Below are positions 32,089-34,165 of a stretch of 64,000 nt of DNA, piece by piece. This DNA comes from an uncultured Chloroflexia bacterium (lineage in GTDB: Bacteria > Chloroflexota > Limnocylindria > QHBO01), in the NCBI GenBank assembly GCA_963838125.1, contig CAWIPT010000007.1, forward strand, positions 1,268,189-1,332,188, read 5' to 3'. Within the stretch, counting starts at the first letter, position 1. Each line of letters starts with the position of its first letter. The position numbers and the translations under genes are program-made. The notes beneath the pieces were generated by a model. That model was not told where the DNA came from. It saw only the letters and a list, made by a program, of their open reading frames with translations, and did no database searches.

Positions 32089-32116
32089 TTGTACGTTTTC
32101 ACATCGGCCCACGTCT
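32089..32116 (+). promoter_or_regulatory. ECF-type promoter candidate, copy 1 (TTGTACGTT-N13-ACGTCT)
   Basis: The motif and spacing are identical to those at 34138..34165. It reads as -35 TTGTAC, a 17-nt spacer and -10 CGTCT, 34 nt upstream of the ATG at 32151, which is preceded by GAGGAG. Confidence 0.6.
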
Positions 32117-32150
32117 ATCTGCTGGAGCTGTGTACGCCCGAGGAGCCTTA

Positions 32151-32711
32151 ATGCGTTCGTCCCGACCGGTTCAGGCCACTCCGCTCCTGGCCGCGCTCCT
32201 GATCCTGTCGGGCTGCGGCTCGGGCGCGGGTCCTTCCCTGACATCGCCGGTGGCCCCAACGTCCACGTCGGCCGCGTCGGCGACGACGCCGACCGGTCCC
32301 CCAGCCAGCCCGCCGGCGACCATGCCGGTGGACCCAGACTCGACGCCCATACATCTCGTGAAGGACTGCAGCACGTTCACCGGGGAGATCCCGAGCTACT
32401 GCTCGATCTCGAGCTCCGACTACCCCGCGATTCCCGTCGGTGCCAAGGTCAACTATCTGGGTCCGCTCCTCATCAACCCGCACTTCCTCAGCAGCAACGT
32501 CGTCATCGACGACGCCCGCGGCAGCACGGCAACCGGCTTCTGCAGCTTCGACGCTCGACCAACCGAGGACCGCGGGCTCTGCACGTTCTGGGGAGGGACG
32601 GGTGCCCTCGCCGGCTTCACCGCGATCTTCGTCGTGTCGATCGACGCGACTGGCGAGTGGCACCTCGACGGCGAGTCCTACGGAACGTCGCCCAGCCCCA
32701 TGCCATCCTGA
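32151..32711 (+). CDS. secreted lipoprotein, uncharacterised family (paralogue 1)
   Basis: MRSSRPVQATPLLAALLILSGC lipobox, a Pro/Thr/Ser linker, then a ~110-aa domain homologous to the 34306..34767 product. Confidence 0.7.
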   Translation: MRSSRPVQATPLLAALLILSGCGSGAGPSLTSPVAPTSTSAASATTPTGPPASPPATMPVDPDSTPIHLVKDCSTFTGEIPSYCSISSSDYPAIPVGAKVNYLGPLLINPHFLSSNVVIDDARGSTATGFCSFDARPTEDRGLCTFWGGTGALAGFTAIFVVSIDATGEWHLDGESYGTSPSPMPS

Positions 32712-32726
32712 GGGCCACCGGATCGC

Positions 32727-33278
32727 ATGGCACTGTCTGCTGACGTGATGGGCCTCGAGGATTCCCCGTCGGTCGCCGGGCGGCCGCTCGGTGCAGCGGA
32801 GGTGGAGGGTGTCCACCAGCGCCGCGGTCGGGACCTATACGGCTTGTGCCGGCGGCTCGGGTTGAACGATGACGACGCCAACGATGCCGTCCAGGAGACG
32901 TTTCTGCGGATGTGGCATGAGTCCCTGCGCGGGGTCGTAATCACCGATCCCGAGGGCTGGGCCTTCCGGGTCGCGTACCGGCTCGCAATGGATCACCACC
33001 GCCTCGGCCGGTTGGCACGCTCGGTGGTCGACCGCCTCGCCTCGGCGACGAACGCCCGCGACCAGATCGATCCCGCCGATCGACTCTCGGTCTGGGCCGC
33101 TGTCGACCGCCTCCCGCCCCGGCAGCGCGCGGTCCTGTACCTCCGCTACCGCGCGGACTTGCCCTACGACAAGATCGCGGCCGTGATGGGCATCACGGCC
33201 AACGGCGCCCGCAACGATGCGAGCGTGGCGACGGCGTCCCTGCGCCGTCGCCTGCTGCGCGAGAGCGGACTCGGATGA
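32727..33278 (+). CDS. ECF (sigma-70 family) RNA polymerase sigma factor
   Basis: 183 aa. Region 2 (DDANDAVQETFLRMW, AWAFRVAYRLAMDHHR) and region 4 (LPPRQRAVLYLRYRADLPYDKIAAVMGITANGAR) are both present. Confidence 0.85.
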   Translation: MALSADVMGLEDSPSVAGRPLGAAEVEGVHQRRGRDLYGLCRRLGLNDDDANDAVQETFLRMWHESLRGVVITDPEGWAFRVAYRLAMDHHRLGRLARSVVDRLASATNARDQIDPADRLSVWAAVDRLPPRQRAVLYLRYRADLPYDKIAAVMGITANGARNDASVATASLRRRLLRESGLG

Positions 33279-34129
33279 CCGACCGACCGGCGACGGGCGA
33301 GCCACGCGCGGCACTCGAGCGATCACTCGAGCGATCGCTCCGCGAAGGTCCGGCCGACGAAGGCGGCTATCGCGCCGAGGCGGTCGACTTCAGCGCCGAC
33401 GCTCACGTCGAGTCGCGCCTCGGCCTTCGAACTGGCCGTCCCTCCGTCCGCCTTGCCCGCCGATCTCCGGGACCGATCACGCTATTCGCCTGGCTGGACT
33501 CGGTAGCGATTCTGCTTGTGGTGGTGGTCGCTGGCTTCGTGCTCCTGCAACGAACGGTCCCAGGCGGCTCGGGCGGATCGCCGCCGGCGACGGAGCGCGC
33601 GAGCGCGTCGCCGATTCAGGTCCCGCTCCTGACCGAGACGTTCGTGTCGACGCGGAACGGGTTCTCGGTGCGGTACCCGGCAGGCTGGTCCACGAAGGCT
33701 GCAACGACCAGCTGGTTACCGAACACCTTTGTCCCGATCGGCAACTCGGCGCTCGACGAGCTCAAGCTCCAGGGCGTGGCCCGACTGGTCGTCGCCTCCC
33801 AGCGGCTCGAGGCGGGGCAGACCGAGGCGTCCTGGATCGCGTCCTTCGGCCAGCAGTACTATCTCCGACGGTGCAGCGGCGATCACGCCGCCTGGCCGCG
33901 GATCACGGTCGATGGCAGATCCGGGTACCTCGACCTCAATGCCTGTCCCCTCCCGGCCGACGCGAACTTCTCGACGCCCGACGTCGCCTTCGATGTGATC
34001 GTGTTCGCCGCCGACCGCGTCTACAGGATCGGCCTCGACGGCGTCGTCGATCTCGGCTATTTCGAGGCCATCCTGGCCACCGTGCGCCTGGACCCGGCGA
34101 GCGCCATCGACCCGCCTGAGAGTCCCTGA
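33275..34129 (+). CDS. single-pass membrane protein, putative non-canonical anti-sigma / sensor partner
   Basis: The ATGA overlap with the sigma gene indicates coupling. One TM segment (ITLFAWLDSVAILLVVVVAGFVLL) and a ~190-aa extracytoplasmic domain. No HxxxCxxC zinc anti-sigma motif. Confidence 0.65.
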   Translation: MTDRPATGEPRAALERSLERSLREGPADEGGYRAEAVDFSADAHVESRLGLRTGRPSVRLARRSPGPITLFAWLDSVAILLVVVVAGFVLLQRTVPGGSGGSPPATERASASPIQVPLLTETFVSTRNGFSVRYPAGWSTKAATTSWLPNTFVPIGNSALDELKLQGVARLVVASQRLEAGQTEASWIASFGQQYYLRRCSGDHAAWPRITVDGRSGYLDLNACPLPADANFSTPDVAFDVIVFAADRVYRIGLDGVVDLGYFEAILATVRLDPASAIDPPESP

Positions 34130-34137
34130 CCTTCACC

Positions 34138-34165
34138 TTGTACGTTCAGTTCAGCTCCAACGTCT
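34138..34165 (+). promoter_or_regulatory. ECF-type promoter candidate, copy 2 (TTGTACGTT-N13-ACGTCT)
   Basis: The 9-nt and 6-nt blocks and the spacing are identical to 32089..32116. It lies between the membrane-protein stop and the paralogue-2 gene. Confidence 0.6.

Follow-up and report, generated by a model that had tools for sequence, protein, structure and literature searches.

When the same two-block motif stands in front of two related genes, and a gene for a sigma factor lies between them, which sigma factor reads the motif? The question is raised by a locus in a 64,000-nucleotide (nt) stretch of contig CAWIPT010000007.1, from an uncultured Chloroflexia bacterium; this whole stretch is referred to below as the window. 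Four genes on the forward strand make up the locus: par1, for a secreted protein; a gene for an extracytoplasmic function (ECF) sigma factor; a gene for a single-pass membrane protein, called the membrane partner here; and par2, for a second secreted protein. The motif copies associated with par1 and par2 are named P1 and P2. We conclude that P1 and P2 are very probably promoters read by the ECF sigma factor encoded between them, which would thus regulate its own gene. This conclusion is built on comparisons among related sequences, in which the motif, its conservation, its position and orientation, its co-occurrence with one sigma subgroup, and the domain architectures of the proteins were all computed directly.

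An earlier note on this DNA, made from the sequence alone, had reported two copies of the motif that share 15 bases at equal spacing, and an exact search confirms both. The pattern TTGTACGTT-N13-ACGTCT occurs at 32089-32116 (TTGTACGTTTTCACATCGGCCCACGTCT) and at 34138-34165 (TTGTACGTTCAGTTCAGCTCCAACGTCT). These are the only two matches in the window when both strands are searched with up to two mismatches, and none of 100 dinucleotide-preserving shuffles of the window contained a match, which puts the chance expectation at 0. P1 lies within the 179-nt intergenic region 5' of par1, and P2 begins 9 nt past the stop codon of the membrane partner gene. Relaxing the pattern to TGTAC-N15-19-CGTC adds two matches (46165 and 62935), which we treat as chance because neither reaches 8 bits with the weight matrix described below. 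A scan of the region for promoters of the sigma-70 type predicted none, and its terminator-like matches were at chance level.

Is the motif kept where the genes are kept? The window itself belongs to a Candidatus Limnocylindria genome (Chloroflexota) of a soil bacterium, and homologs of all four proteins come from Chloroflexota metagenome-assembled genomes (MAGs), mostly with the same label. Scanning one genome per GTDB species with an alignment of the sigma factor yielded 80 loci (L001-L080). Eighteen of them (L001-L018) encode a sigma factor that is 67-95% identical; a second par-family gene accompanies it in each, as do par1 and the membrane partner, which is truncated in L010. The remaining 62, referred to as sister loci, have a related sigma factor alone (45-56% identical), with neither the focal motif nor par genes. 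The motif precedes the second par-family gene in all 18 orthologous loci and the par1-sigma operon in 17, the copy in L010 being degenerate; the proposal of the earlier note thus survives a comparison that could have overturned it. The co-occurrence is specific, in that motif and par genes are found in 18/18 loci of this sigma subgroup and in 0/62 of the sister loci.

Taken over the 37 instances in the window and the orthologous loci, the consensus reads T-TGTACGTT-(Y-T-G)-N-CGTCT-(A/G)-T, and the conserved core is T-TGTACGTT-N14-CGTCT-N-T at fixed spacing. The elements TGTAC, GTT, and CGTCT.T are kept in nearly all instances, with a base change in GTT in two. Sequence outside these elements, in the spacer and flanks, is variable, and the spacer is constant in length. 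Information content accordingly runs from 1.3 to 2.6 bits at the motif positions and from 0.1 to 0.8 bits in the spacer. All sites are intergenic and always co-oriented with the downstream gene, which encodes a signal peptide. Where the second gene is inverted and placed upstream, as in L007 and L014, its own motif copy is on the opposite strand with it, so that the motif travels with the gene and its orientation is kept. The distance from the end of the -10 element to the start codon is 32-35 nt at P1 and at the P2 of the closest relatives, an interval that includes a GGAG-type ribosome-binding site; at several more distant P2 sites the leader measures about 68 nt.

How often does such a motif turn up out of context? 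The weight matrix was built from L003-L018 only and is therefore independent of the window. It assigns 40.0 bits to P1 and 27.1 bits to P2, and at most 8 bits to any other place on either strand of the 64 kb. Across 602 kb of Limnocylindria loci, all 35 matches of at least 29.8 bits are at the expected positions, and the next best match reaches 15.5 bits. The motif is, on these figures, not common away from its genes, as the earlier note had allowed that it might be. A scan of metagenome contigs for the exact pattern TTGTACGTT-N14-CGTCT-N-T returned at least 120 loci dominated by low-GC chance matches, and for that reason it is of little use in defining a regulon. Among the matches listed, four are true (L115, L128, L197, and L205), all of them 5' of par genes, and the other high-GC matches that could be judged fall within coding regions or a long way from the start codon that follows. 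As for the suggestion that these four genes form a self-contained regulon, the four genes are its conserved core, and the regulon is shown only for the window and the 8.5-kb loci.

Is the two-block architecture peculiar to this locus? Weight-matrix matches below the threshold led to comparable motifs in the sister loci (L019-L080), some 30-80 nt 5' of the sigma genes (around position 3900-4000 of each locus). The pattern CGTT-N13-15-CGTC is present near the sigma start in 50 of these 62 loci. Most of the matches take one of two forms, both with a 14-nt spacer and both just upstream of the sigma gene: TTCAACGTT-N14-CGTCGGA (sigma factors 45-52% identical) and CCGAGCGTT-N14-CGTCTGTA (sigma factors 50-56% identical). 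All three subgroups fit the common frame xxxxxCGTT-N14-CGTC. Three -35 bases vary among them (GTA, CAA, GAG), and the predicted -35-reading helix of region 4.2 varies in step (ANGARNDAS, APSARSHVS, psAARGHAS). Because the sister ECFs carry equivalents directly upstream, the bipartite architecture is a family trait, and beside their motifs the focal -35 is a GTAC variant of the usual AAC-type element. The parsing of the motif as an ECF-type promoter is thereby borne out, and the pattern across the three subgroups is, at the level of sequence, what would be expected of autoregulated ECFs with diverged specificity. ECFs commonly autoregulate, and conserved upstream motifs are a standard basis for promoter prediction (PMC7826278). 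A well-delimited candidate pair of sigma factor and promoter, together with two sister pairs distinguished by three -35 bases, could be used as orthogonal regulatory parts, and the series should be useful for learning how ECF region 4.2 reads the -35 element.

It is worthwhile to set the motif beside familiar ECF promoters. Those of Bacillus subtilis sigma-X, sigma-M, and sigma-W are approximately TGTAAC-N17-CGAC, TGCAAC-N17-CGTC, and TGAAAC-N16-CGTA, and that of Escherichia coli sigma-E is GGAACTT-N16-TCAAA. The focal motif shares with such promoters a -35 element that ends in AC and is followed by a T-rich run, a distance of 16-17 nt to a -10 element containing CGT, and a place upstream of the sigma operon. 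It differs from them in its GTAC core, where they have AAC, and in its longer blocks, TTGTACGTT and CGTCT-N-T.

What circuit would this arrangement give? The layout of the genes agrees with what had been noted before: 15 nt separate par1 from the sigma gene, the start of the membrane partner gene overlaps the sigma stop codon (ATGA), and the two secreted proteins are paralogous, at 31% identity (E = 3e-9). We infer that RNA polymerase with the ECF sigma factor would bind a -35 element TTGTACGTT and a -10 element CGTCT-N-T across the fixed 14-nt spacer, and would start transcription from both copies. P1 would drive the operon of par1, sigma factor, and anti-sigma factor, a positive autoregulation that the co-expressed anti-sigma factor would restrain, and P2 would drive the second secreted par-family barrel. 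The short N-terminal helix of the membrane partner would sequester the sigma factor at the membrane, and an envelope signal perceived at its PsbP-like domain would bring about release. The secreted dirigent-like barrels would be the output, and possibly part of the sensing. That the sigma factor autoregulates through P1, which the earlier note had derived from gene order, now has comparative support in the conservation of P1 in 17 of the 18 loci and in the sister motifs. The features of the locus are collected in Table 1.

Table 1. Predicted and annotated features of the locus, in window coordinates
Feature	Position	Strand	Description	Basis
Promoter P1 (predicted)	32089-32118	+	-35 TTGTACGTT 32089-32097; 14-nt spacer; -10 CGTCTAT 32112-32118	
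par1	32151-32711	+	Secreted par-family protein; first operon gene; GAGGAG ribosome-binding site 5 nt upstream	
Sigma factor gene	32727-33278	+	ECF (group 4) sigma-70 family sigma factor, 183 amino acids	Pfam and NCBIfam
Membrane partner gene	33275-34129	+	Probable anti-sigma factor, 284 amino acids, single-pass	Alignment, AlphaFold2, Foldseek
Promoter P2 (predicted)	34138-34167	+	-35 TTGTACGTT 34138-34146; -10 CGTCTGT 34161-34167	27.1 bits
Remnant of ancestral second par gene	34200-34230	+	Ribosome-binding site, ATG, about 10 signal-peptide codons	
Imported leader	34231-34305	+	Matches the native upstream region of par2-type genes	Comparison with L082-L087
par2	34306 (or 34315)-34767	+	Secreted; AxA signal peptide; the start in homologs corresponds to the ATG at 34315	Open reading frame
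Hairpin 3' of par2	34773-34804	+	12-bp GC-rich stem, 8-nt loop, no T-run	
tRNA-Arg(TCT)	34831-34905	-	Convergent; directly past the swapped cassette	

Several points weigh against P1 and P2 being promoters of the sigma factor between them. Most ECF promoters carry AAC in the -35 element, at the place where this one reads TAC, and neither Pfam nor NCBIfam recognises an anti-sigma domain in the membrane partner. There is no terminator between the operon and P2, so that par2 may be reached by read-through and P2 may not be strictly needed. The output of P2 may also be poor, given that its leader runs to about 140 nt and contains a remnant upstream open reading frame and a hairpin. Finally, cross-recognition by a paralogous sigma factor is possible, since the sister ECFs share the CGTT-N14-CGTC core. 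This last point can be taken further: the motif could be an ECF promoter that is read mainly by another member of the expanded Limnocylindria family, in which case the adjacent sigma factor would not be autoregulated. Sister promoters with the same core would provide for this, and several paralogous ECFs do occur per genome (three of the loci come from MAG CAVUQZ01, for example). However, the TGTAC form of the -35 element is found only beside the focal sigma subgroup, each sister subgroup has its own form, and the residues of region 4.2 change from subgroup to subgroup along with the -35 element. We therefore regard this explanation as unlikely.

Two other explanations seem to us more improbable still. 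In principle, an operator bound by a conventional repressor or activator, rather than a sigma element, could also account for a conserved intergenic motif 5' of co-regulated genes. Yet the motif forms no palindrome and no direct repeat; its two blocks, at a fixed distance across a non-conserved 14-nt spacer, have the geometry of -35 and -10 elements, and the same architecture recurs upstream of the sister ECF genes. Moreover, the sigma factor is the only regulator conserved in the locus, and we give an operator very little chance. The same small chance goes to the idea that copy 2 is a non-functional relic of the tandem duplication behind the paralogues. The genes behind both copies are indeed paralogous, so the promoter was presumably duplicated along with the gene, but copy 2 has been preserved base by base across 18 lineages whose spacer, leader, and coding sequences have diverged. 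It has also survived both the inversion of its gene (L007, L014) and the replacement of its gene (the window and a further locus, L081, discussed below). Recognition of both copies by the sigma factor encoded between them is the explanation we prefer.

To what kind of sigma factor does this recognition fall? Pfam places Sigma70_r2 at residues 31-92 (4e-10) and Sigma70_r4_2 at residues 120-163 (1e-10), and the NCBIfam model TIGR02937 (sigma70-ECF) matches with 58.3 bits against a cutoff of 42.9. A protein of 183 amino acids with sigma-2 and sigma-4 domains only, and without regions 1.1 and 3, has the make-up of ECF group 4, whose members have about 180-200 amino acids. A predicted bipartite promoter precedes its own operon in the window and in 17 of the 18 orthologous loci, with TAC in place of AAC in the -35 element; the sister subgroups read CAAC there. 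All NCBIfam subgroup models score below their cutoffs. The best of them is TIGR02983, the Streptomyces-type SigE family, at 85.2 bits against a cutoff of 141.55, which falls short of membership.

Is the membrane partner the anti-sigma factor that the circuit calls for? We consider this probable from its sequence and gene context. About 176 homologs of the partner were found, and neither Pfam nor NCBIfam produced a match in the partner or in any of them. In the alignment and the AlphaFold2 model, residues 9-24 (ALERSLREGPxDExGY) form an N-terminal helix, followed by a disordered linker. The model continues with one transmembrane helix at residues ~70-92 and a confidently predicted C-terminal extracytoplasmic domain. 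Foldseek aligned this domain with cyanobacterial PsbP (2xb3; E = 2.8e-5, template modelling (TM) score normalised to target 0.59, probability 1.00), with Tsi3 (3wa5_B; E = 2.2e-5, TM score normalised to target 0.57, probability 1.00), and with BT_1490 (E ~2e-5). Judged on the model, the domain is a PsbP/Mog1/DUF1795-like alpha/beta sandwich, a likeness at the level of the fold only.

The N-terminal segment is what the partners have in common. At least 54 of the 80 loci have its motif of about 16 residues (phi-E-R-x-L-R..P.(D/R)E..Y; window 33275-33350), which no Pfam model covers, at the start of the gene that follows the sigma gene. In the sister subgroups, the extracytoplasmic part of the partner is a LysM, Kelch, SBP_bac_3, or DUF4232 domain instead. 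A constant short cytoplasmic module combined with exchangeable sensor domains resembles an anti-sigma family. The partner does not look like a class I anti-sigma factor, in which a four-helix anti-sigma domain of about 80-90 amino acids often carries HxxxCxxC: it has one helix before the membrane and no Cys/His motif, and Pfam and NCBIfam gave no match to a domain of the zf-HC2/RskA type (PF13490, PF10099). Class II (CnrY-type) anti-sigma factors are single-pass proteins with a very short cytoplasmic sigma-binding segment, encoded beside their ECF. The putative anti-sigma factor here is like them in having a short cytoplasmic segment in a single-pass membrane protein beside an ECF, and differs in showing no sequence similarity, in its large PsbP-like domain, and in the conservation of a single helix of about 16 residues. 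The classes of anti-sigma factor have been reviewed (PMC8999054, PMC7406223).

A bolder reading, and one that we find doubtful, goes beyond this locus. It would have an ECF family, expanded in Limnocylindria, controlled by an undescribed minimal anti-sigma module that consists of the ~16-residue helix, one transmembrane helix, and interchangeable PsbP-like, LysM, Kelch, SBP, or DUF4232 sensors. In the focal subgroup, the barrel encoded by the first gene would then be a ligand-carrying co-sensor of the PsbP-like domain and not a mere output. The most useful leads, in our opinion, are the putative short anti-sigma motif and the three-way divergence of promoter and region 4.2.

What are the secreted proteins? 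The par family, for which Pfam has no model, numbers about 975 homologs. The AlphaFold2 model is an 8-stranded barrel, with a predicted local distance difference test (pLDDT) score above 90 in the domain. The top Foldseek matches were dirigent proteins (8th2, 6ooc, and 4rev), the allene oxide cyclase AOC2, the pyocyanin demethylase PodA, and the Diels-Alderases AbyU and AbmU, at E values of about 1e-3 to 1e-2 and TM scores of about 0.5. The Pfam search for membership of Dirigent (PF03018) or AOC gave no Pfam match for the par proteins. As modelled, then, they are dirigent/allene-oxide-cyclase-like barrels, the resemblance being one of fold only. An unannotated family of secreted dirigent-like barrels, with some 1000 homologs and no Pfam model, would in this way be linked to envelope signalling. 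The par1 protein of the window has a lipobox (LSGC) and a linker rich in Pro, Thr, and Ser. This combination (window 32151-32330) occurs in the window, L001, L002, L081, and L128 only, and the more distant par1 orthologs have ordinary AxA signal peptides.

Are there precedents for such a locus? In Streptomyces coelicolor, the sigE-cseA-cseB-cseC operon combines an ECF gene with a lipoprotein gene whose product modulates envelope-stress signalling. The locus is like it in that an ECF sigma operon includes a lipoprotein gene, and the best NCBIfam match of the focal sigma factor is the SigE-family model TIGR02983; the differences are that SigE is under a two-component system, not an anti-sigma factor, and that the gene order is another one. 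By analogy, and going by the account in PMC7509140, the closest described design is the minimal cassette mpt83-sigK-rskA (ECF19) of mycobacteria and other bacteria, with its duplicated target mpt70 (Veyrier et al. 2008, as related there). In that account, as in our locus, a gene for a lipid-anchored secreted protein is followed by an ECF sigma gene and then by a membrane anti-sigma gene. The first gene is preceded by a site that depends on the sigma factor, very few genes make up the regulon, and duplication of the first gene gave rise to the additional target, mpt70, whose product is likewise secreted (PMC7509140). The proteins themselves are unrelated: MPT83 and MPT70 are not dirigent-like barrels (Mpt83 is of the FAS1 type), and RskA belongs to a recognisable anti-sigma family, whereas the focal partner has no RskA or other Pfam match. 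The promoter sequence is also different. The comparison is one of architecture only. Membership of the focal sigma factor in ECF19 is unlikely, because its best NCBIfam match is the SigE family, and that below cutoff.

A literature search turned up no paper on the ECFs of Limnocylindria and none that links dirigent-like proteins with ECFs. We regard the locus as a standard, ordinary autoregulated ECF module in an uncultured class, and the general picture of ECF regulation is unchanged by it. The class is abundant in soil and freshwater, and almost nothing is known of its transcription.

Some irregularities among the orthologous loci should be recorded. In L010, the -10 element of P1 has decayed to CATCG (3333-3365) and P2 is intact; the partner there (4498-4686) has 62 amino acids, with the N-terminal motif kept but both the transmembrane segment and the sensor missing. 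Decay of the locus or an error of assembly could account for this, and we place no weight on a case from a single MAG. In L001, the partner gene (4549-5402) and the second par gene (5450-5960) are split across several reading frames, probably through long-read sequencing errors rather than as real pseudogenes. The P2 leader of about 68 nt is that of L005 (5388-5468), with equivalents in L006, L008, L009, L012, L015, L016, and L017. A stem-loop, GAGCC...GGCTC inside AACGGC...GCCGT, is predicted in the leaders of these eight relatives. As a structured leader we set it aside: the covariation term is unfavourable, and compensatory change is seen in 2 of the 15 predicted pairs.

What, finally, lies behind P2 in the window? 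The earlier note had placed copy 2 in front of par2, and it is indeed upstream on the same strand, but not directly so: about 140-150 nt and a remnant open reading frame lie in between. The remnant, in which a 1-nt deletion leaves a 6-codon open reading frame (MRSVRA*, 34200-34220), is homologous to L001, L002, and L003 up to about 34231-34238, where the homology stops. The leader that follows it contains a hairpin, CCTCCTTCGGGAGG, and the ribosome-binding site of par2. The par2 protein of the window is 29% identical to the product of the second gene of L002. In L081, by comparison, par2 is 84% identical, and the same junction is present with a further 50-nt deletion (L081 2686-3400; window 34200-34810). 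The cassette is common to the window and L081 up to the hairpin 3' of par2, and synteny ends beyond it. These comparisons point to the replacement of the ancestral second gene by a cassette of about 580 nt (leader, par2, and hairpin), with P2 retained. Transcripts from P2 in the window would therefore carry a leader of about 140 nt that includes the remnant upstream open reading frame. The case is an example of a promoter that was kept while the gene behind it was exchanged. An Rfam scan of 31500-35500 (E up to 1) found tRNA-Arg alone, and thus no known RNA element in the par2 leader.

The strong hairpin at which par2 had been said to end is there (-33.1 kcal/mol, z = -3.16), and it probably serves as a terminator and marks where the swapped cassette ends on the right. 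Par2-type genes elsewhere were searched for a native motif copy 5' of them, and none was found. Outside the sigma locus, par2-type genes stand beside dedicated regulators (L082-L087 and L211, upstream of position 3001; L208, 2281-2853). The regulator is a divergent protein of 1114-1117 amino acids with SARP/BTAD, AAA, and TPR parts, and a small gene mostly lies between the two, with a weak GerE match in four loci. One par2-type gene (P0091) adjoins a different ECF sigma gene (PF07638) and a Ser/Thr kinase gene. With both SARP and ECF partners on record, the barrel family has been paired repeatedly with dedicated regulators. At the position that tRNA-Arg(TCT) occupies in the window, L081 has an NYN-domain gene and tRNA-Leu(CAA), so that the right junction of the cassette borders tRNA genes in both.

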